Position numbers and translations under genes: made by a program
In this document: one piece after another, positions 5,496 through 17,734 of the stretch
Position numbering within the stretch: position 1 is the first letter of the stretch
Layout of the letters: the number at the start of each line of letters is the position of its first letter
Source: a virus
Taxonomy: Duplodnaviria; Caudoviricetes
Direction: 5' to 3' (one strand)
DNA length: 64,000 nt
IMG/VR virus record: IMGVR_UViG_3300046373_000059
Span: 960-64,959 of that record
Notes under the pieces: model-generated
Databases searched by the model: none
Seen by the model: only the letters and a program-made list of their open reading frames with translations
Told to the model about the DNA's origin: nothing

Positions 5496-8400
5496 TTATT
5501 TCATCACGCGCTCTGCGATCTTGTTTCGCATGGCGCTCAAACGATCCACTTCTGTACGTTTCTGACTGGCATCCATTTTACTGGATGCTTGTACTTGTTG
5601 AATTCGTAAATTGATTTTACTGATACTAGCGCTTGCCATACGGAACTTCGGCGCCTGCATTACCAGCTCCTTGTTGTCGGCCAGCAGCTCCTTGGCTTTC
5701 TCCAGGTTCCCGAGTTTCTTGTAATGCAAGACATCGGCCTGTGCCTCGCGCACCTGGACGGCCTGCTTGTAAAACTCTTCCACGTAGCGGCTTTGATTCG
5801 CTGGCAGCTCCTTCACCCAATCGCCCACGAAGAAGGCTTCGTCCACTTTCTTCTCGGCCTTTTCTGGCAGGTTCATGGCTGGGCGCAGCGGCGTGTCGGC
5901 GGCCATGGCGATGTGCGAGCCAAGCCAGCCGAAGTACCCGGCGATCATGTAGTCGATCTGGACTGGCGACAGGACGCCAGCCTTGCCCAGCATGATAGCC
6001 ATGGCCGTGGTGTTGCCGCCGATGCGCTCGGACTTCGACAGCTTCTCCATGCCGGGCGTTTCGATGGCGCGGTTGCGGAACGGGTCGTTGTTCGCGTAAA
6101 GATCGACGGCTGGCTTGACGAGCTGCGGCACAGGATTCATCGACAGGTTGTCCATGACGATGTGGTACAGGCGCGTGGCGAAGCGGTCGCGGGCCTTGGC
6201 ATCCATGCCGTCCAGGATCATGTCCAGGCCGCGCTCTGCGATGGTAGCCATGGCGCCCACCTCGAACGGCTTGGGGATGCGGATGGCATGGCCGCCCGTC
6301 TTGAACCACCAGAAGTTATCCCGATCCCATTCCTCGCGGCGCTTCCAGTCATCGTCGTCGCGGTTCGCCAGCATCAGGGCGATGGTGGCGATAGTCGTGG
6401 CGCCCAGCACCGTGGCGAAGCGGCGCGGGTCGTCCTGCATGGCGCGGCCCAGCTTGTACAGACCCTGCAAGCGGGCGTTCATGAACGGCACGGTTTGCGT
6501 CAACAGGCGCACGGCGGGCCATGCACCTTGCAGGCCGAAGTCCATCGAGTCGCGGGTGTTGTAGGACGCTTCCAGATGGCTGGCGCCGTTCGCAATCATC
6601 TGCGTGTAGATGGCGGCCCGCGTGATTGTCTCGCCACGGTCGCCCAGCTCCATCCAGCCATCGTATGCTTTGTTCAGCATGCCCTTGATCTTCGACGGCG
6701 TGTCCATGATGCTGCCCGCTGGCAGCGTGCCGATCAGGTTTTTCAGATGGGCTGCGCGGTTTTCCTCGTAGGCGGAACCCATGCGGAACAGGCCGCCGCC
6801 AGCCAGCATCTGCGCGTACATCGGGTTGTCCTTGGACGAATACTTGATGCCGTCAGCCAGATTCTTCGCCACGTTTAGCGACATCGGGTTCGCCGCGATG
6901 GCCTGCAATTGGTCGCGGATGATGTTGCGGATTTTGTAGGTCGGGCCGAACGTCACGCCGAACGACAGCATCCGCTTTGCCTTGGTGGCGATGTCGATGA
7001 CGCCGCCCTTCATGCCGCTGAAGGCCAGCGACGACACGGCGTCAGCGATAAATGGATCATCCACGACGTAGTGCATTTCCTTGCCGTTCTTCAGGACGAA
7101 CACGGAACCCTTCGTGGACGACGTGACATTGTGCGCCACGCCCAGCTTCTGCGCCGCGTCCAGCGTCGTGGCCGCTGCCTGATTCTTCAGCGATGCCGAC
7201 AGCAGATGCGACCAGTTGAGCACGGTGTTTTGCATCAGGTCATTCAGGTTATCCTTGCCGCCCTTCAGCTTCTTGAATGCGTACTGGTTCGTCAGGCCAG
7301 CAAGATTACGCGGGCCGACAGCCTTACCGTCGTCTTCCAGGACGCGGTAGAACGGGACATAGAAATCCTTCTCCCACTTGTGGCGCTCGGCCCCGTCGAT
7401 CATGCCGGATTTCTCCGCGATGTCGAGGATGGATTTCGAGAATCCGTTCAAGTCCTTCAGCACCTTGGTGTACAGGGCTGTACGGTTTTTACCGTCAGCC
7501 GTGGTGCCCTGGTTCAAGGACTTCAGCGCGCTGATGTCGGTATCGGTGAAGAGGTTTTCCTTGCCCTCGGTCTTCAGCTCGGCGGCGCGGTTGCCAGCGA
7601 CCCAGGAAAAGAAGCGGTCTTGCTCGCCGCCCAATTGCTTCATGGTGTCGATGAAGCCGCCCGTGTTGTCAACCTTGATGGCGCCGTCAGCGTCCAGCGA
7701 CAGCTTGCCGTAATTGAGCATGGCTTCCAGGCCGCCGTCAGCGGACTTCGACAACCGGGCCTGCATGTACGCCTTCATGTCCAGCGCCTTGATTGGCGCG
7801 AACTGATCGACGATACCCTGCACCAGCTTCTTGCCCAGGTCTTGCTTCATTTCCGTGAAGCGTTCGCCAATGGTTTTCTCAGGAACCCACAGGCCCACCT
7901 TCTGCGCAATCTGAGGCGTCATGCCTGGGACTTGCGACAGCCAGTCAGGCGGCGTGCGCGAGAACGCCAAGTCGGGCTTCTCATTGGTCGAAGTCCACTC
8001 AGGCATCAGGCCCACTTTCTGCGGAGCGTACTGCGTGTCGGCGCCGTTGGCTGTCTTATTGAATTCAGCGAACGGGCCGAAATTTACCCACGAATTCTGG
8101 CCGCGAGTCTCGGTCGTCATGGCTGGGCGCGCAAGGTCGGAGTACATGGAAGCGTGCTGCTGCCATGCGTTTTCCTCGCCCTCGGCGCGGAAGCCGACGC
8201 CCTCTTTGATGTGGCCGAAGTAGTCATGCACGATGCGGAAAACGTCGTTTGCCACGAGCTGATGGTCGCCAATCTTTTCGTCCACGGGAGCCAGCAGCGG
8301 GTTGCCGCTGATGTCCACGTTGGCAGACTCAGTGCCGCCAAAGCCCGACGTAGTTGGGTAGACCCAAAGATGGTTATTATTGACCACATCCAGGATTGCA

Positions 8401-11400
8401 TTGCGAGGATTGCCGTAGGGATCGGCGCCGGTAATCAGCTCGATCTTCAGGCCGGTCTTCTTGATTTCCTGGTACTGCGCCAGCGTTTCTTTAATCATGG
8501 CGTCATACGATGCCTTGACCTTCGGATCGCTTGGCGCATGCTCCATCGAATCGAACGCGGCGGCTATGGCCTTGGCGCGTTGCGGATCGACCTTCACATA
8601 GTCGCGCTGCACAGGCGCAGTGATGCCAGCCGCTTTGCGGTAGCGCTCGGCTGCTTCCTTGGCCGGTGCGAACGGGCCGAAGGTTACTGGCTTGCCATCG
8701 ACGACGACGGAGGATTGGAGTCCACGGAGCGGGATAGCGCGATTACCTTGCCCTGGTGTTGCATCCAGTAATTCAGGCTTTCCTGAAACTCCGTTTGGCT
8801 CTTGAACTTTTCGCGCAAGGGTTTGCTTTCCTCCAGCTTCTGCACGTACTGTTCCTGCGTTTGCTTTGCCATCATATACACCTTTATCTCGATTGCTGTT
8901 GTACTCGCCCCAGGCTTTTGCAATGGCTTCCTGCACGGCAGCGCGGTCGCTTACCATGCGGTCGATGTCGAAGTGCGAACCGGCTGCCACGCGGATGGCC
9001 TTGGTCAGCATCTGCATTACCTTGTACGCCACCTTGCGGAACAGGCTTTCGTCGTGCTCGGCCATCTTCTGCCAGAACTTCGGATCGACCGCGACGGCGC
9101 CGCCGATGTCGGCCATCACTTCATTGAAGCCTTGTTGCAGGCCGATCTGGTTCCCGGCTGGAGCACGAGAATTCTCATACTCCATACGGCTTTCCACAAG
9201 GCCCGGCTTCATGTACTGCACGACGAAATCTTCCAGCTTGGACGCCAGCTTCTTGTCAGTCATTTGCAGGATGTGCGATACCTCGTGGAACGTGATGGGG
9301 ATCAACGGGGATTTCTCGCCGGTCGCCACATACACGTCGCCCTTGAATGCGACGCCGTGGAAAACATCGTTGTCGGTCACGTAGGTGAGGCGCGTGCCGA
9401 ATGCCTTGTCGGCCACGGCCTGCACGATGCGCTGCTCAGGCGTGACATTGCGCACCACGCTGATCTTGACGCCTTCGCTTTCCATGGCCTTGTTCAATTC
9501 GCTGATGCGGTTGTCGTCGGCCACGCGGGACAGCGCGGTTTCCGGCGCCGCCTTCGGTGCCAAGGTGAAGCCGCCCTTTGGGCTTGGCACGGCCTCGACA
9601 TCCAGCTTATTGTCGGCGGCGAACTGCTGTGCAGCGGCTTGGTCGGCAAACGCGCCGGTCGCCTGCACGGCCAGTTCCTTCGGCATTACCTTTGCGTCCT
9701 GGGCCTGGGCCACGGCGGGCGATGCTGGCGCTGCTGCCGTAGCGGCGGCCTGCGTCGATGCGAATGGCTGCGTGGTTTCGCCGTTCTTCAGCCAGTCCTT
9801 CAGGCCGTCAACGGTCGTTTCGCTGATGTTCTCGCCGCCCTTCCAGCCGGGCTGGTAGTTGTCGTAATAGGCAGCCTTCGCTTCTTCCAGCGTGTTGAAG
9901 CCCAGCATGACCTTGTGCTCGTCGAACTTCCCATCAGGGCTGGCCTGATCCACGACAAACGCCTTGGGGCTGTTGACGGCAGGGCCGACGAAGGTATCGA
10001 CGCCAGCCGCGTCCGCGCCCTTGGTGCCCTTGATGTAGCCGTAGTGCTCGGTCATCAGGGTACTCCATGGGGTCTGGTCTTCGGACACGCCGCTACGCAC
10101 CGAACCCTGTGGATTTTCCACCTTGACGGTCAAGCCTTGGAAGTCTGCTTCGCCCAGCTTGGCGTTGTTCGCAGCTTGCTGCGCTGGCGTGGACAGGCGG
10201 CGCTCGTTCAGCGCGGAGTCGGCAGCATCATGCGCAGCCAAGTCGAATGGCGATTCCATGCGCAGGCTGGCAGGGTTCGTCGGGTTGATCTTGGCCGCGC
10301 CGAGATTCGTTGCCTGGACGACGGTGCCATCGGGGCGCGTGACTTCTACAGGCGCAGCGGCAGCCGCAGCTTCCAGCGGTGCAGCGGCGGCTGCTTCGGT
10401 ATTGGCAATAGGTGCCTGTGGCGCGAGGCGTGCAGCGGCCTCAATCGGGCCAGCAGGCGGCGCCAGTGGCGCAGCTACATTACCGGCGAGGTCGGCACGT
10501 CCAGCGTCAGCAGGATTGCCAGATACTCGATCTGGCTGTTGCGCGGTTCCGGCAGGCTGTCCTTCGACCACAGGCTGATTTCGTCCGGTGTCGCCAGTCC
10601 CGCTTCCACCAGCTCCAGCATCTGCAACGACGTTAGCGGGTTGTACAGCGGAACCCACGACAGGCTTCGCTGCACCAGATGGCTGTCCATTATCAGACTC
10701 AGTTCCTCGTCCTGGTTTTCCATTATCAGCCTCGACTGGTGTAACAGCGAAGGAGCCGCCGACAGTCGGATGTGGCGTGACTTCAAACGGCGTGCCGGTT
10801 TCCGTTGTCATGCGGTTTGCGCGGGCCTGGGCGGCTTCCATCGTCTTGATGGGAACCGATACCCCAGGCTGCTCTGGCGCTGCCTTGGCGGCTGCGCTCG
10901 TGATTGGGCCTTGGATGTTTGCGCCGCCGCCCATGACGCCACCAGCCAGCGCGCCCTGAGCTGCGGCATTCGCTGCGCCCTGGTTCCACTGCTGGCCGGT
11001 TGCGAGATTCTGTGCCACCTGTTCCTGATACGATTGCGGTGCTTCTTCCAGGATGCCTTCGCTCAATGCGCCCTCGCCAACACGGCGCAGCAAGCCCTTG
11101 GTCGTGGCCTGATGGCCGCCAGCCAGCATCGTGTCGATGTCGTGGATGCCCAGCTTCTGCGCGATCTTGCCGCCGACGACATTCAGGCCGCCAGTAATCG
11201 CGCCGGATGTGGCGGCGATGCCAGCCTGTTCCGGCGTCAACAGGCCATTCGCCGTGGATTGGCGTACCTGCTCTGCCGTCTGACCAGCGGATACAGCGCC
11301 CTCGCCCAGCGCGCCAGCCAGGACGGGGCTGATCGCGGCGGCGCCACGGGCCACACGGCCAATCGCGCCGCCCAGGCCCATGGATGGCAGGGACTCGACT

Positions 11401-11777
11401 GCGCTGTTGACGATGGTGGATGGATTCTGCGCGGCGGCAACGACGGTAGGGACGAAGCCTTCAGCGGTGTTGACCTTCTCCTGGGCAGCCTTGTACTCAG
11501 GCGAATAGTAATCCGCCATGATGTTCTTGGTTTCCTTGGTCTGGATGCCAGCCTGTTCGGCCAGCTTGCCGACAGCGCCGCCAGAAGGGATGTCCGCCAA
11601 GCCGATGATGGCTTCAGGCACGCCGACGATACCACGGGCCAAGGACAGTCCCACGTCGGATGCCATGCGCTTGATGGGCGATGCTGGCTTTGGAATGGCA
11701 GAAGCGAAAACGCCCATGTCGTCCTGCTTCTGCGGGACTGTGGACGCGAACGCGCCCAGCTCTTTATCGTTATCCAT
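5496..11777 (-). CDS. Large polyvalent internal virion/ejection protein: InPase domain, HExxH metallopeptidase, HDxxGH domain, LPD38-like C-terminus
   Basis: 2093 aa; VENPQGSVRSG..HYGYIKGTKGAD..FDEHKVMLGF (about 9800-10150); HEVSH at 9273-9287; HDYFGH at 8211-8228; IRIPKPFEVG/NDPFRNRAIE near the C-terminus. Confidence 0.85.
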   Translation of the reverse strand: MDNDKELGAFASTVPQKQDDMGVFASAIPKPASPIKRMASDVGLSLARGIVGVPEAIIGLADIPSGGAVGKLAEQAGIQTKETKNIMADYYSPEYKAAQEKVNTAEGFVPTVVAAAQNPSTIVNSAVESLPSMGLGGAIGRVARGAAAISPVLAGALGEGAVSAGQTAEQVRQSTANGLLTPEQAGIAATSGAITGGLNVVGGKIAQKLGIHDIDTMLAGGHQATTKGLLRRVGEGALSEGILEEAPQSYQEQVAQNLATGQQWNQGAANAAAQGALAGGVMGGGANIQGPITSAAAKAAPEQPGVSVPIKTMEAAQARANRMTTETGTPFEVTPHPTVGGSFAVTPVEADNGKPGRGTESDNGQPSGAAKPVVGSAVQPANVVADAGAGGSGTGDTGRNQPVVEGQPAGTAQQPDRVSGNPADAGRADLAGNVAAPLAPPAGPIEAAARLAPQAPIANTEAAAAAPLEAAAAAAPVEVTRPDGTVVQATNLGAAKINPTNPASLRMESPFDLAAHDAADSALNERRLSTPAQQAANNAKLGEADFQGLTVKVENPQGSVRSGVSEDQTPWSTLMTEHYGYIKGTKGADAAGVDTFVGPAVNSPKAFVVDQASPDGKFDEHKVMLGFNTLEEAKAAYYDNYQPGWKGGENISETTVDGLKDWLKNGETTQPFASTQAAATAAAPASPAVAQAQDAKVMPKELAVQATGAFADQAAAQQFAADNKLDVEAVPSPKGGFTLAPKAAPETALSRVADDNRISELNKAMESEGVKISVVRNVTPEQRIVQAVADKAFGTRLTYVTDNDVFHGVAFKGDVYVATGEKSPLIPITFHEVSHILQMTDKKLASKLEDFVVQYMKPGLVESRMEYENSRAPAGNQIGLQQGFNEVMADIGGAVAVDPKFWQKMAEHDESLFRKVAYKVMQMLTKAIRVAAGSHFDIDRMVSDRAAVQEAIAKAWGEYNSNRDKGVYDGKANAGTVRAEAGGKQTLARKVQEPNGVSGKPELLDATPGQGNRAIPLRGLQSSVVVDGKPVTFGPFAPAKEAAERYRKAAGITAPVQRDYVKVDPQRAKAIAAAFDSMEHAPSDPKVKASYDAMIKETLAQYQEIKKTGLKIELITGADPYGNPRNAILDVVNNNHLWVYPTTSGFGGTESANVDISGNPLLAPVDEKIGDHQLVANDVFRIVHDYFGHIKEGVGFRAEGEENAWQQHASMYSDLARPAMTTETRGQNSWVNFGPFAEFNKTANGADTQYAPQKVGLMPEWTSTNEKPDLAFSRTPPDWLSQVPGMTPQIAQKVGLWVPEKTIGERFTEMKQDLGKKLVQGIVDQFAPIKALDMKAYMQARLSKSADGGLEAMLNYGKLSLDADGAIKVDNTGGFIDTMKQLGGEQDRFFSWVAGNRAAELKTEGKENLFTDTDISALKSLNQGTTADGKNRTALYTKVLKDLNGFSKSILDIAEKSGMIDGAERHKWEKDFYVPFYRVLEDDGKAVGPRNLAGLTNQYAFKKLKGGKDNLNDLMQNTVLNWSHLLSASLKNQAAATTLDAAQKLGVAHNVTSSTKGSVFVLKNGKEMHYVVDDPFIADAVSSLAFSGMKGGVIDIATKAKRMLSFGVTFGPTYKIRNIIRDQLQAIAANPMSLNVAKNLADGIKYSSKDNPMYAQMLAGGGLFRMGSAYEENRAAHLKNLIGTLPAGSIMDTPSKIKGMLNKAYDGWMELGDRGETITRAAIYTQMIANGASHLEASYNTRDSMDFGLQGAWPAVRLLTQTVPFMNARLQGLYKLGRAMQDDPRRFATVLGATTIATIALMLANRDDDDWKRREEWDRDNFWWFKTGGHAIRIPKPFEVGAMATIAERGLDMILDGMDAKARDRFATRLYHIVMDNLSMNPVPQLVKPAVDLYANNDPFRNRAIETPGMEKLSKSERIGGNTTAMAIMLGKAGVLSPVQIDYMIAGYFGWLGSHIAMAADTPLRPAMNLPEKAEKKVDEAFFVGDWVKELPANQSRYVEEFYKQAVQVREAQADVLHYKKLGNLEKAKELLADNKELVMQAPKFRMASASISKINLRIQQVQASSKMDASQKRTEVDRLSAMRNKIAERVMK
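8684..8872 (-). CDS. Nested out-of-frame gene B (62-63 aa, MAKQTQEQYVQKLEE...) inside the polyvalent protein gene
   Basis: AAAGGTG before ATGATG; third-position GC bias moves from the host frame to this frame. Confidence 0.6.
   Translation of the reverse strand: MAKQTQEQYVQKLEESKPLREKFKSQTEFQESLNYWMQHQGKVIALSRSVDSNPPSSSMASQ
10475..10723 (-). CDS. Nested out-of-frame gene A (82 aa, MENQDEELSLIM...) inside the polyvalent protein gene
   Basis: GAGG-6 nt-ATG; CTG/GTG/GAC/AGC/CCG codons in this frame while the host frame turns A/T-ending. Confidence 0.65.
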   Translation of the reverse strand: MENQDEELSLIMDSHLVQRSLSWVPLYNPLTSLQMLELVEAGLATPDEISLWSKDSLPEPRNSQIEYLAILLTLDVPTSPVM

Positions 11778-13274: not shown

Positions 13275-15407
13275 TTATCCCTTGTGACGATAAACGGTGC
13301 TATTAGTATAACGACGGCTTGTACCCACGCTCGTGGAAGCCGAATTGCTTGCGCGCAACGAGTTCTCGTTCGCGGAGGAATTCGATTCCGTGTTCGATAC
13401 CGACTGCTCAAAGGAATCCGAATGGCTCTGATTGTGCGACATCGACTGCGATTTCGAGATTGATGCTGAAGCGCTATTTGCGGAGCCTGTTGTGCTGCTG
13501 CTGCTGGTGCTAGTGCTGCTGCTGCTGCTGAAGCCAGTGCTTGCCGATACCGACATGCTATTCGATGCGGAGACTCCAGCCGAATTAGACGTGGCTCCAG
13601 TGATGGATGCCGACACATTCCGCGCCGACATCGCAGCGGAAGCCAGTTGCGTCGCCAGTTGCCCGGCTGCCCGCAGTGCTGCTTGCGCTGTCTCCGACTT
13701 CAGTTGCGCGAGGTCGATGTTGATGCTGCCCGACTGGAGTTGCGTGCGTGCCTGAGTCGTATAGATGCGAGTGGTCGTTTCAAGCACGTCAGCCTGTGCC
13801 GAAGAGCGCTGGCCCTGCGTCCGCTCGATTGCTGCATAGGCGTCCACGCGGGCACGGAACACTTCAGCCGTGGCGCCAAGGCGAGCTGCCTCGCCGCTGA
13901 TCTGCGCTTGGTAGCCAGTGATCTTGGCGCGGTAGAGCTGCACGGGGAACTGCTGCAACTGGCGGAACTGGAACTGCGTGTCGGCCAGCTTGGCATCGGT
14001 CAATGCGCGGTACGCTTCCACGCGGGAATTATACGCAAGGACTTGCTCGCTAAACATTTCCACCTTGGTCTGTTCCGCCTGCACTTGGCCCAGGTATCCC
14101 TGCACCTGTGCGCCATTGGCTTTCGCCAGTGCGGAATAGGATTCGACCTGGGCCTTGTACAGTTCTGTACGGTTGCGGTTTGTTTCCACGGTCAGGCTGA
14201 CGGCATCGACGCGGGCGCGGTAGACATCGGCCAGCGCCTTGACGCCATCGACCTGGGCGCTGTACTGCTGCGCCAGTTGCACATTCAGGCCGCCGATGAT
14301 CTTCAGGCTTTCCAGCTCGGCGCGGTAGACATCGAGCGTGGCGAGCACGGATTGCAGCCGGGTCTTGAACACGTCGGCCTTGACGCCAAATGCTTGCACG
14401 TCAGCCGTGTACAGCGCCACGCGGGCGTTGAACAGGTTGACGATTGCATTGATACGGAAAGTCTCGGCGTCCAGCACGCGGGCCTGCACCTGATTGAACA
14501 GCTCGATCAGGCGGCCTTCGAGCTGCATGGCGTTGGCGAAAGCGAAATGGAAGTTGGACTGCTCCAGCTTCGCCTGATCCGTCATCACTTGGCGCGACAG
14601 GTCGGCATCGCTCTTCAGGCCAGACTCGATTGCCTCCTGGACGATGCGTACAAGCTGGCCGCCTGGGATGTTGAAGCCGCGAGCTGCCGTCTGATCGAGC
14701 GCGTTCTGCACTGCTTGGAACGTCAGCATGGCCTCGGCATCGCAGCCCTTCTGCCAGATGGCTTCCTCGATTTCCACTGGCAGCGCCGTCGATACGCCTT
14801 CGACGATTTCCAGCAGGCGCTCGTTAAGCGCAGTCAGGTTTTCGCTCGCGTATTCGGTTTCCGCCCAGGCGAACTGCACGTCGATAGCATCCGGCGCTGT
14901 CGGCGCTTCATCGACAAACAGCGGGATGTCGAAGACAGGCGCTGCCGGGATGTTCAGCGAAGTGAAGGTCGGAACGGCAGGCAGGCTGAAGTCAGGCTCG
15001 ACAGGCGTTGAAACTACCGGCAGGACTGGCACGGATGGGGTCAAGACATCGAACGGGTCAGGCAGCGGCACGTCGATCAGCAGTGGGGCGGCCAGGGTGT
15101 ATTCCGGCGCCTCACCGATGTTCAGCGGCGGCAGCGCTACCTGCGTTGGCTCGCTTGGCAGCGCTGGCTGTGCCGTGGTCAGGTTGCCTGGGTCTGCCGG
15201 TGGCGTGCCGGGCGCAGGCAAGTCGATGGTGGGGATGTCGAAGACAGGGTTATCCAGTGGCGGGATGTCCACGTTGAAACTGCCAAGCGACTGGATCGCG
15301 GCAAGGCCACGCGATGTGGCTTGCTGCGCCATGCTTTGCGACTCGCCCAGCACCGTGGTTACAAGGCCCGATGCAGTGTCGATGATGGGAGGTGGCGTGA
15401 TAGACAT
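13275..15407 (-). CDS. Virion protein, paralog 2 (Pro/acidic N-terminus, coiled coil, Ser-rich tail)
   Basis: Probable start MSITPPP at 15407; collinear similarity with 15416-17734. Confidence 0.75.
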   Translation of the reverse strand: MSITPPPIIDTASGLVTTVLGESQSMAQQATSRGLAAIQSLGSFNVDIPPLDNPVFDIPTIDLPAPGTPPADPGNLTTAQPALPSEPTQVALPPLNIGEAPEYTLAAPLLIDVPLPDPFDVLTPSVPVLPVVSTPVEPDFSLPAVPTFTSLNIPAAPVFDIPLFVDEAPTAPDAIDVQFAWAETEYASENLTALNERLLEIVEGVSTALPVEIEEAIWQKGCDAEAMLTFQAVQNALDQTAARGFNIPGGQLVRIVQEAIESGLKSDADLSRQVMTDQAKLEQSNFHFAFANAMQLEGRLIELFNQVQARVLDAETFRINAIVNLFNARVALYTADVQAFGVKADVFKTRLQSVLATLDVYRAELESLKIIGGLNVQLAQQYSAQVDGVKALADVYRARVDAVSLTVETNRNRTELYKAQVESYSALAKANGAQVQGYLGQVQAEQTKVEMFSEQVLAYNSRVEAYRALTDAKLADTQFQFRQLQQFPVQLYRAKITGYQAQISGEAARLGATAEVFRARVDAYAAIERTQGQRSSAQADVLETTTRIYTTQARTQLQSGSINIDLAQLKSETAQAALRAAGQLATQLASAAMSARNVSASITGATSNSAGVSASNSMSVSASTGFSSSSSTSTSSSSTTGSANSASASISKSQSMSHNQSHSDSFEQSVSNTESNSSANENSLRASNSASTSVGTSRRYTNSTVYRHKG

Positions 15408-15415
15408 GCTGTTTC

Positions 15416-17734
15416 CTATTCGCTGATCGTCGTTTGGTCGGTGCATTCCACGCTGGAGCTAAGGCCCACGGACGTGTTGAGCGCCACGGATTTGCCGTTG
15501 CTGGCGGTCGTGTGCGTTGCGTTGCTGGCAGAGCGACGGTTCGAGGTCGAGTTGCCAAGGCTCTTGCTGTAGGCGCGGCCCTCGCTTTCGCTGCGCGAGT
15601 TCGACAACGAAACGCCTGTCGTCGAGCTGTGCGCGGTGCTGGTCGAAGACGACGAGCCGGTGGACGTGCTGGCCGAGTAGCTGGTGGAATTGCTGGCCGA
15701 ATTCGATTCGGAATTCGACGAAGACATCGAGCCGGATTCGGAGATTGCAGCCGTGACGCTTTGAGCTGCGATGGCGGCGGCAGCCATCTGGCCGCTCAAC
15801 TGACCAGCCGAACGGAGGTTGCTCGACGCGGAGCTGGAAGCCTTCTCTGCGGAGGCATAGTTCTGCTTGGCCGAGTCGATGGCGATTTCAGCCTGGGCGA
15901 TCTGTGCAGCAGCATTGGCGGCCATGGCCTTGATCTGCGCGCCGACGTGATCCACCTTCGCGCCCTCCTGCGCGCTGAAGGCGCGGATGCGGGCATTGAA
16001 TACGGAGGCGGTCGATTGCAGGCGCTCGGCTTCTGCCGTGGCTGCCGTGCGGTATGCGTCCATGCGGGCGCTGTACAGCTCCAGCGGAAATTCGTTCGTC
16101 TGCTTCAGGCGCAGCTCCTGGACGGCGATGTTGGCCTTGGCCGTCGTGTCGAATGCCTGGACGCGGGAACGATACGCCTGCACCTGTTTGCTGAAGACTT
16201 GCACCTTCGCAGCTTGGCCGCGCACGCGAGCGCTGTACGTGTCGTATTCCGTGATCTTCGCCGTTACCTGGGCTTCCAGCGCGCCGATGCGGGCGCGGTA
16301 GCCTTCGACCACGGACTTGTTCGAGGCGATCTGCGACTTGGCCGCGTCCACGCGGGTGCTGTACGTGCTGACGATGGCGCGCACGCCTTCGATCTGCGCA
16401 CGGTAGATGGCGACCTTCTGGCTGTTGACTTCACCGATGGCGCGCTGCGCTTCCAGCTTGGCCTTGTAGACATCGACCTGGGCCAGCGCCGCCACGAGGC
16501 GCGTCTTGAACACTTCTGCCTTCATGGCGAAAGCCTGCACGTCAGCCGAGTACATTTGCACCTTGGCATTGAAGAGCTGAATCTCTGCCGTAACGGTAGC
16601 TTTTGCCGCTTCCAGTGCGCGGGCCTGGGCCGCATTCGCCTTGTCGATCATGCGCGACTCCAGCGACACAGTGGTTTCCAGGGCGAAGCGGAAGTTGGAT
16701 TGCTGGAGATTGGCGCGCTCGATTGCCACGGCGCGCTGCAAGCTGGCGTCGCGTTGCAGGCCGCTTTGCAATGCCTGCTGCACGATGCGGACGAGCGATG
16801 CGTCAGGGATGCGGAAGCCACGGGTCTTCATCAGGCGCAGGGCTTCTGCCGTGGCGCGGTGCGTCAGCATGGCCTCGCGGTCGGCTGCCCGGTTCCAGAT
16901 GGCATCCTCAACATCCTGGTCGATGCCAGTGGAAGTCATGTCGCCCACCATTCCAGCCAGCCGCGTATTCATGGCGGTCAGCAGGGCGGTGTTGTACTCG
17001 ACCTGGGAATAAATGAATTCCGCTTCAGGCGCGGAAGGAGCAAGCCCAGGCTCTGCATCGAACAGAGGGAGGTCGAGCACAGGTGCATCAGGCACAGACA
17101 GCTCGATCAGCGTCGGCACGGGAGGCAGGCTGAAGTCCGGTTCAATGGCGACAGGGAGCGCGTCATACACAGCCTCGGCTGGCAGCAGCGCGTCGAATGG
17201 ATCGGGCAGCGGGATGTCGAACAGCGACACGTCGGCCACGTCGTATGCCGGTGCGATGCCGATGTCGGCCAGCGGGATGTCTGCCGTGATGGGCGCATCA
17301 GGCGCGGTAGGGAAGTTCGCCGTCAGGTCTGTGTCAGGTGGAGCGTCGCCAAGCGGAGCAATGACGATGCCGCCCACTGGAATCACAGGAGGATCAAGCG
17401 GGTCGAATGTGTTGTCGTACAGGGCAAGCGCTTCGATGGTCGCCAGGGCGGACGCCTGCGATGCCTGGGCCAGCACGCCGGTTTGACTGATGACGCCAGC
17501 CACGACGCCGGGCGTGGTCGAATCGACGAGCGCCACAGACACGTTGTCAGGCGCCACTACCTCGGCGGCAGGAAGCGCAGGCTCTGCTGGGATGGCAGCA
17601 GGGACATCAGGCAGGCCGCCGAACGGCTCCAGGTCGTCCAGCAGCGGGAGGTCTGGATACGGCTCGACCGGCAAGACAGGATCGACCGCTACCTCGATAA
17701 CGTCGCCTACGATAAACGCTGCATCACAAGACAT
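15416..17734 (-). CDS. Virion protein, paralog 1 (Pro/acidic N-terminus, coiled coil, Ser-rich tail)
   Basis: EPDFSLP, LFNAxVxxYxADVQAF, FPxxLYxA and LRxAGQL blocks are shared with the downstream gene. Confidence 0.75.
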   Translation of the reverse strand: MSCDAAFIVGDVIEVAVDPVLPVEPYPDLPLLDDLEPFGGLPDVPAAIPAEPALPAAEVVAPDNVSVALVDSTTPGVVAGVISQTGVLAQASQASALATIEALALYDNTFDPLDPPVIPVGGIVIAPLGDAPPDTDLTANFPTAPDAPITADIPLADIGIAPAYDVADVSLFDIPLPDPFDALLPAEAVYDALPVAIEPDFSLPPVPTLIELSVPDAPVLDLPLFDAEPGLAPSAPEAEFIYSQVEYNTALLTAMNTRLAGMVGDMTSTGIDQDVEDAIWNRAADREAMLTHRATAEALRLMKTRGFRIPDASLVRIVQQALQSGLQRDASLQRAVAIERANLQQSNFRFALETTVSLESRMIDKANAAQARALEAAKATVTAEIQLFNAKVQMYSADVQAFAMKAEVFKTRLVAALAQVDVYKAKLEAQRAIGEVNSQKVAIYRAQIEGVRAIVSTYSTRVDAAKSQIASNKSVVEGYRARIGALEAQVTAKITEYDTYSARVRGQAAKVQVFSKQVQAYRSRVQAFDTTAKANIAVQELRLKQTNEFPLELYSARMDAYRTAATAEAERLQSTASVFNARIRAFSAQEGAKVDHVGAQIKAMAANAAAQIAQAEIAIDSAKQNYASAEKASSSASSNLRSAGQLSGQMAAAAIAAQSVTAAISESGSMSSSNSESNSASNSTSYSASTSTGSSSSTSTAHSSTTGVSLSNSRSESEGRAYSKSLGNSTSNRRSASNATHTTASNGKSVALNTSVGLSSSVECTDQTTISE

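Follow-up and report, generated by a model that had tools for sequence, protein, structure and literature searches.

Can a short reading frame lying wholly inside the gene of a giant phage protein be a gene in its own right, and if so, what would its product do there? The question is raised by a locus of a Caudoviricetes virus, IMG/VR record IMGVR_UViG_3300046373_000059 (64,959 bases with direct terminal repeats), of which we analysed positions 960 to 64,959, hereafter the window (64,000 nucleotides). On its minus strand, the gene of a 2093-residue polyvalent protein (5496..11777, 6282 nucleotides, from the list of open reading frames and its translation) contains a second open reading frame, ORF B (8684..8875, minus strand). 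It is shifted by +1 relative to the host gene and lies just ahead of the part that encodes a domain with HDxxGH and GEENAW motifs, hereafter the HD domain. From comparison with related loci, we consider it very probable that this stretch is dual-coding and that ORF B is selected, independently started and inherited together with the HD domain.

ORF B encodes 63 residues from its first ATG or 62 from the second, overlaps host residues 968-1031 and has its stop codon at 8684-8686. The minus strand reads gataAAGGTGtatATGATGgcaaag here, and the product of the ORF is MMAKQTQEQYVQKLEESKPLREKFKSQTEFQESLNYWMQHQGKVIALSRSVDSNPPSSSMASQ. A Shine-Dalgarno-like AAAGGTG (8879..8885, minus strand) is placed 3 nucleotides before the first ATG and 6 nucleotides before the second; in the host frame, these two ATGs overlap Tyr and Asp codons. 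The preliminary description of this DNA had remarked on GC-ending codons in ORF B against A/T-ending codons in the host frame, and the counts agree: over the same 63 codons, the GC content at codon positions 1, 2 and 3 (GC1/2/3) is 0.51/0.35/0.75 for ORF B versus 0.73/0.51/0.35 for the host frame. The host GC3 is 0.74 gene-wide, and only 2.1% of the gene's 63-codon windows are as low as the one over ORF B. Right in substance, too, was the statement that the ORF ends where the HD domain begins. Over the last ~15 codons of the ORF, the host frame already encodes the domain's first conserved residues (GLxxxVxVDG), and the HDYFGH motif follows 153 codons further on, at host residue 1184. The TATGAT proposed as a -10-like element fared less well: the letters are present, but a scan of 8500..9300 gave no promoter-like site on either strand. 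The length of ORF B alone is not special: open stretches of at least 63 codons number 8 in the +1 frame of the host gene and 7 in its +2 frame. ORF B rises above chance by being conserved in other phages.

We queried IMG/VR with host residues 900-1260, which returned 46 viral loci, and translated each in three frames. A profile built from 12 of the +1 ORFs matches 27 of the 46 loci and the window at E<1e-10. The matches amount to 20 non-redundant sequences, the window included; five matched loci (L021, L031, L036, L037 and L040) had not been used in building the profile. Every matched ORF is offset by +1, is entirely nested and stops 447-510 nucleotides before the HD motif. The family shares the motif KPxRExF-x4-E[FY]xEA-x3-[FW], with P19 and E32 invariant, and stays open with an ATG also in phages of 38-50% GC. 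At least five of the 19 unmatched loci (L013, L019, L027, L042 and L044) come without upstream sequence.

Three collections were also searched from the B side, with an alignment of 14 closer database matches (A2). The viral search yielded nine loci, all nine nested in the +1 frame before an HD motif and two of them repeating earlier contigs. The metagenome search likewise gave nine, of which L062 and L063 repeat earlier contigs, and the genome search two, in metagenome-assembled genomes of Phenylobacterium (L056) and Pyrinomonadaceae (L057). Seven further nested +1 loci before an HD motif were thus reached from the B side alone: L047, L048, L049-51 and L054-55 in viruses, and L059, L064 and L066 in metagenomes. 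A tblastn search of ORF B against 50,697 GenBank phage records returned no match at E<=1; its relatives occur in metagenomic collections only.

The conserved core of ORF B, residues 15-47 (EESKPLREKFKSQTEFQESLNYWMQHQGKVIAL; 8735..8833, minus strand), gives 33 ungapped columns across the 20 non-redundant sequences. Over these codons the B frame has a mean pairwise identity of 0.379 and a BLOSUM62 score of 1.91 per site. The host frame reaches 0.28 and 0.89, and the third frame, which has stops, 0.29 and 0.57. In five phylogenetically separate close pairs, chosen out of ten valid ones, 66 substitutions are silent in B and change the host protein, 33 do the reverse, 43 change both and 3 neither. 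Random single-base changes are expected to be B-silent in ~0.20, host-silent in 0.26 and altering both in 0.54 of cases, and the binomial probability of 66 out of 99 is 2.8e-6. Three pairs (L021-L031, L038-L040 and L037-L040) were dropped as misaligned, with a nucleotide identity of ~0.3.

The host frame over ORF B (host residues 968-1014; 8736..8875, minus strand) is a low-complexity linker rich in G, P, Q and S, poorly conserved and always open. We resampled the synonymous codons of each B peptide with the codon usage of its own locus: the probability of an open host frame ranges from 0.000 to 0.60 per sequence, and that frame is open over the overlap in 19 of 19 homologues, each of which has 1-4 stops in the third frame. 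Since B is the better conserved frame and the host frame is open beyond chance, both appear to be read. Toward the 3' end their roles swap: the tail of B is variable and predicted to be disordered, and the host frame carries there the conserved start of the domain, GLPxxVxxxGxxxxFGP. By these measures the B frame is under purifying selection at the amino-acid level and the host frame is selected to stay open. The nested ORF was thus rightly taken at first sight for a real, selected coding frame.

What stays with ORF B from locus to locus is the HD domain. The 200-330 residues upstream vary: they hold a region with an HExxH motif in the window, ART-PolyVal by Pfam in L004, L040 and L015, and unrelated sequences elsewhere, whereas the HD domain downstream of B is constant. 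The suggestion that an effector domain travels with its nested partner gene is supported by this pattern. In a tree of 40 HD domains, the 29 B-bearing rows spread over most clades and at least five gains or losses are required; two of the B-less rows merely come without upstream sequence. Judged from these loci, B and the HD domain are co-inherited at fixed spacing, with a linkage that is not universal, and the linker with its embedded B, together with the HD domain, is a cassette shuffled behind different upstream domains.

The HD domain itself (host residues 1015-1262; 7992..8735, minus strand) belongs to no known family or fold. Its HDYFGH motif lies at host residues 1184-1189 (8211..8228, minus strand) and is followed by GEENAW. 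The only family to cover it is phrog_3170, of unknown function, which matches host residues 1011-1258; neither Pfam nor NCBIfam has a family for it. An alignment of 28 sequences (A3) shows 38 invariant columns, among them H170, D171, G174, H175, G186, E187, N189 and W191, and also H194. The invariant H170, D171, H175, E187 and H194 suggest a metal-dependent enzyme. AlphaFold2 (AF2) models the domain with a predicted local distance difference test (pLDDT) of 92.6 and a predicted template modelling score (pTM) of 0.91. Against the PDB, the best sequence match has an E-value of 0.19 and the best Foldseek match one of 0.11, with a template modelling score below 0.2. A wide VIA-align search gave a best Z of 2.8, to a minigluzincin zymogen, and 2.2 to YbeY. 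The model may thus represent an undescribed fold of a metal-dependent enzyme. A likeness to the HxxxGH iron site of tryptophan hydroxylase came up in rows with E-values of 0.4-1.4, which is the level of noise, and was not used.

The product of ORF B is modelled by AF2 with one helix over residues 3-16 and a second over 27-51, which meet at the invariant KP and are followed by a disordered tail; the mean pLDDT is 79, rising to 90-95 over residues 11-40. It has no family in Pfam, PHROG or NCBIfam, where only a sub-threshold match to 4HB_MCP_1 (E 0.015) was seen. We predicted their complex from alignment A3 for the HD domain and alignment A1 for B, in three runs with three controls. The interface score ipSAE is 0.91 in each of the three runs versus 0.00 for the best control. 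The runs share at least 71% of their contacts, with a partner pLDDT of at least 75. Among solved complexes, 58 of 80 come up to a score of 0.91, and among mismatched pairs 2 of 110. Residues 31-50 and 13-19 of B are placed on residues 103-111, 126-132, 163, 167, 181-187, 213-218 and 226-239 of the domain, a surface that includes its invariant T128, N163, R167, G181, E187, Q213, N214 and N218. On this modelling we lean, somewhat beyond an even chance, towards B being a binding partner of the HD domain.

Which of the two overlapping frames came first? The preliminary description had ORF B overprinted onto the polyvalent gene, which is likely the wrong direction, as members of the B family occur elsewhere as genes of their own or as in-frame parts of larger ones. 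When 1.84 billion representatives were searched with the profile, 259 proteins scored E<=1e-3, 35 of them E<=1e-10; most have 43-120 residues, and in a few longer ones the motif is in frame or repeated. In L065, a B gene of 61 residues stands free, with the other frames closed. In L060 (317..1285) and L061, the B module forms in frame the N-terminus of a Kinase-PolyVal protein (Pfam, E 1.8e-21), from which it follows that the module serves domains other than HDxxGH too, and in L057 B is nested in +1 before a different, non-HD domain. Two to four tandem in-frame copies of the motif ([KR]PxRxxF...Y/FxEA...W) are found in phage-like proteins: four in P0106, a tape-measure-like protein of 1045 residues with Pfam PhageMin_Tail, and further ones in P0150 (462 residues) and P0104 (377 residues). 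The B motif falls in no Pfam, NCBIfam or PHROG family, and it may be a general short docking module.

Phylogenetic distribution has been used as a criterion for the older frame of an overlap, as the accessible text of Pavesi 2021 (PMC8227390) sets out. By this criterion, B is probably the older frame and the host linker the newcomer, laid over a pre-existing small gene. Codon usage points weakly the same way: B is closer than the linker frame to the usage of the host gene in 14 of 19 sequences (Wilcoxon p = 0.02), and the same is seen with 9 of 11 lineage representatives (p = 0.067). The GC3 of B is 0.59-0.89 in every phage, whatever the GC of the genome, and in AT-rich phages it is opposite to genome usage; its composition is thus a property of the module and not of this genome.

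We can now propose how the locus might work. ORF B would have a ribosome-binding site and an ATG of its own within the late messenger RNA of the polyvalent gene and be translated from them. Its product would be a helix-turn-helix hairpin of ~45-70 residues with a disordered tail, and it would bind the conserved face of the HDxxGH domain, whose coding sequence follows directly. The arrangement would have arisen when a small gene between two domain genes was read through in another frame, yielding a fused polyvalent protein; the read-through frame would have become a featureless linker kept open, with the sequence of B retained. In the virion-producing cell, B would keep the HD domain inactive or assembly-competent and would be lost on packaging or ejection, which would confine the action of the domain to the next host. 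Taken as a whole, a nested gene with its own start, a binding partner of the HD domain, a shared cassette and a read-through origin make up the reading that we favour, with moderate confidence. Its functional part, the view of B as an immunity-like keeper in the cell that makes the virion, is drawn by analogy and remains tentative. The wider proposal is more doubtful still: that polyvalent proteins would generally carry cis-encoded keepers, that is, out-of-frame linker genes that clamp the next domain, are shed on packaging or ejection and move as a cassette.

Several observations weigh against this favoured reading. The case for translation of ORF B is an evolutionary one only. The calibration of the B-HD score is rough, because our own alignments were supplied. 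The putative catalytic residues H170, D171, H175 and H194 lie outside the listed contacts and are only flanked by them. The interface is equally conserved in lineages with and without B (permutation p = 0.98), and there is consequently no B-specific signature on the HD domain. HD loci that have upstream sequence and no B do exist (L022, L023, L025, L026, L029, L030, L034, L035, L043 and L045). A B-like ORF is also absent from the entire records of five out of five B-less HD phages, four of them at least 90% complete, where the same search found exactly one B in each of five B-bearing records used as positive control. B-like modules are seen with other partners, as in L057, L060 and the tape-measure-like repeats. 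Finally, codon usage was rejected as decisive proof of the ancestry of B, its GC3 being high irrespective of genome GC.

Much of this would also be at home with a B that is real and translated and acts as a chaperone of folding or packaging, an obligatory subunit or activator of the domain, or a general adaptor among polyvalent proteins that docks cargo in the virion, not as a specific inhibitor. Modules joined to Kinase-PolyVal, nested before the non-HD domain of L057 or repeated in P0106, P0150 and P0104 would suit an adaptor; the HD lineages that do without B, the indifference of interface conservation to its presence and contacts that flank the H/D/H residues instead of covering them speak for such roles too. 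We still think this rather unlikely, given the strict, position-fixed linkage of B and HD in every B-bearing phage locus (27 of 46 and seven more) and the high-confidence predicted interface on the most conserved face of the domain.

The favoured reading also requires that B be started independently. Frameshifting is common in phage structural genes, and the B frame could in principle be entered by a programmed +1 shift out of the host frame, the product being a truncated N-terminal protein that ends in a B tail, or left by a -1 shift back into the host frame, which would yield a B-HD fusion; the B module at the in-frame N-terminus of a larger protein in L060 offers a precedent of sorts. In the homologues, however, the start codon is ATG in 18 of 19 cases, 9-25 codons before the invariant proline, with GTG in L018. 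Of the 20 non-redundant sequences, 7 have a B-frame stop immediately ahead of the ATG and 2 more have one within two codons of it. By eye, purine-rich runs of the GGAG/AAGG type stand at a similar distance before most of the 19 homologue starts. Slippery X_XXY_YYZ heptamers in the B frame are limited to 3 of 19 sequences, at non-homologous positions, so there is no conserved slippery site, and none of the top 150 profile matches joins B and HD in one frame. ATG starts, preceding stops and scattered heptamers fit independent initiation better; on this pattern ORF B has its own translation start, and we regard a frameshift as very improbable. An untranslated ORF B, open and conserved as a mere by-product of constraint on the host protein, the RNA or the DNA, is more improbable still: long alternative frames are common in this GC-rich gene, but the host frame is, by identity, conserved about as poorly as the third, non-coding one, B-silent changes are favoured 2 to 1 against an expected 0.77 to 1, B keeps its ATG and openness even at 38-50% GC, and its homologues occur free-standing and fused.

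The arrangement has partial counterparts among known systems. Nested +1 genes are familiar in phages, in phiX174 and in the Rz/Rz1 pair of lambda, where Rz1 is embedded in the +1 frame of Rz. As in Rz/Rz1, whose products act together physically, a larger phage gene here encloses a small one completely, in the +1 frame of the same strand. The lipoprotein Rz1 carries a signal sequence and a lipobox cysteine; ORF B has neither a cysteine nor a signal peptide and does not qualify as an o-spanin of the Rz1 type. Unlike Rz, the host gene encodes a 2093-residue multidomain virion protein, and unlike in Rz/Rz1, the overlap falls in a linker between domains and the embedded gene accompanies one domain from protein to protein.

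Delivered toxins, such as colicins, those of contact-dependent growth inhibition (CDI) systems and polymorphic toxins, have immunity partners. ORF B resembles these partners in being a small gene linked to, and co-inherited with, one effector domain, to which its binding is predicted. It differs in lying upstream, out of frame in the same gene, and not as a separate downstream gene. Some lineages, moreover, have the HD domain without a detectable partner, and toxicity and neutralisation enter here by analogy only. The host gene is a member of the polyvalent proteins of phages and conjugative elements, with relatives that carry ART-PolyVal, and in the accessible text of Iyer et al. 2017 (PMC5512222) polyvalent-protein loci are compared with polymorphic-toxin cassettes.

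For the origin, the closest parallel is the spacer of the hepatitis B virus (HBV) polymerase over S/preS. In the modular-evolution model, as given in the accessible text of Pavesi 2021 (PMC8227390), a short gene was read through to give a poorly conserved spacer that fuses the flanking domains. In both cases a short pre-existing gene would stay functional while a linker fuses its flanks. The differences are that HBV belongs to another virus world, with other proteins, and that here the overlapping protein supplies, in its adjacent domain, the predicted binding partner of B. The ancestry of the frames is here deduced mainly from distribution, the codon-usage test being equivocal. Genes nested in polyvalent genes were not found in the literature searched, which covered the main texts, without supplements, of Iyer et al. 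2017 (PMC5512222) and Pavesi 2021 (PMC8227390) among others. What we consider new is the combination of a conserved out-of-frame linker gene, a cassette with one domain and a predicted binding partner.

Such genes matter for annotation, because standard gene callers skip genes nested in larger ones, which leaves a conserved family like B out of phage genome annotations. Polyvalent proteins are thought to enter the host along with the phage DNA and to disarm its defences, and a partner made from the same messenger RNA, right where the domain is encoded, would be a simple way to keep their enzymatic domains harmless or foldable in the producer. If the origin proposed above holds, the locus offers a clean example from a prokaryotic virus of domain fusion via read-through of a small gene in another frame, and of a shuffled module composed of a protein domain and an out-of-frame gene. 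Two uncharacterised families are marked by it: the HDxxGH domain, confidently modelled and without a fold match in the PDB, and the KPxRExF...EFxEA hairpin. Should cis-encoded keepers be real, the linkers of giant proteins would partly be relics of read-through, and others, such as the gene A stretch of the same protein, may hide more.

Gene A (10475..10786, minus strand), the putative second nested case of the preliminary description, covers host residues 331-483, a second dip of the host GC3 (0.33-0.48) over an A/G/P-rich linker, with a +1 ORF of 103 codons. Against L001, its one close relative, identity is 86% in the +1 frame and 80% in the host frame; the substitutions with this single relative are 10 silent in A, 7 silent in the host frame and 13 changing both. 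Gene A does not belong with the ORF B family, and the search for more distant relatives gave none.

The host gene product is a phage polyvalent protein: InPase (residues 532-664, E 8.8e-47) and LPD38 (residues 1808-1983, E 1.1e-31) are matched above the Pfam cut-offs, and the gene sits in a virion gene module, between genes for tail and virion proteins and that of an endolysin. Its PHROG matches are large virion and DarB-like proteins, and it is probably a virion or ejection protein itself. An LPD38-bearing protein of 2811 residues was detected by proteomics in virions of phage phi24B and proposed as an ejection protein, according to the accessible part of a preprint. Directly upstream of ORF B, host residues ~690-967 (8877..9710, minus strand) contain an HExxH-like motif read by eye, ITFHEVSHIL, in a region that no Pfam family matched; at the same position upstream of B, L024 has a different HExxH-like region (MRHESVHAL).

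In L056 (1354..3240) and in a matching metagenome contig (L058), a free B-like ORF of 82 residues begins 30 nucleotides after the stop of a hipB-hipA pair, recognised by Pfam HTH_31 and by HipA_C and Couple_hipA. A truncated host-like frame overlaps this ORF, with repeats downstream and no HD domain, and the ORF may be a remnant or a recruited copy. In the window, two adjacent large genes of the minus strand, 13275..15446 and 15416..17734 (723 and 772 residues), both match phrog_10969, of unknown function, with E-values of ~1e-90 and look like tandem paralogues within the structural module.

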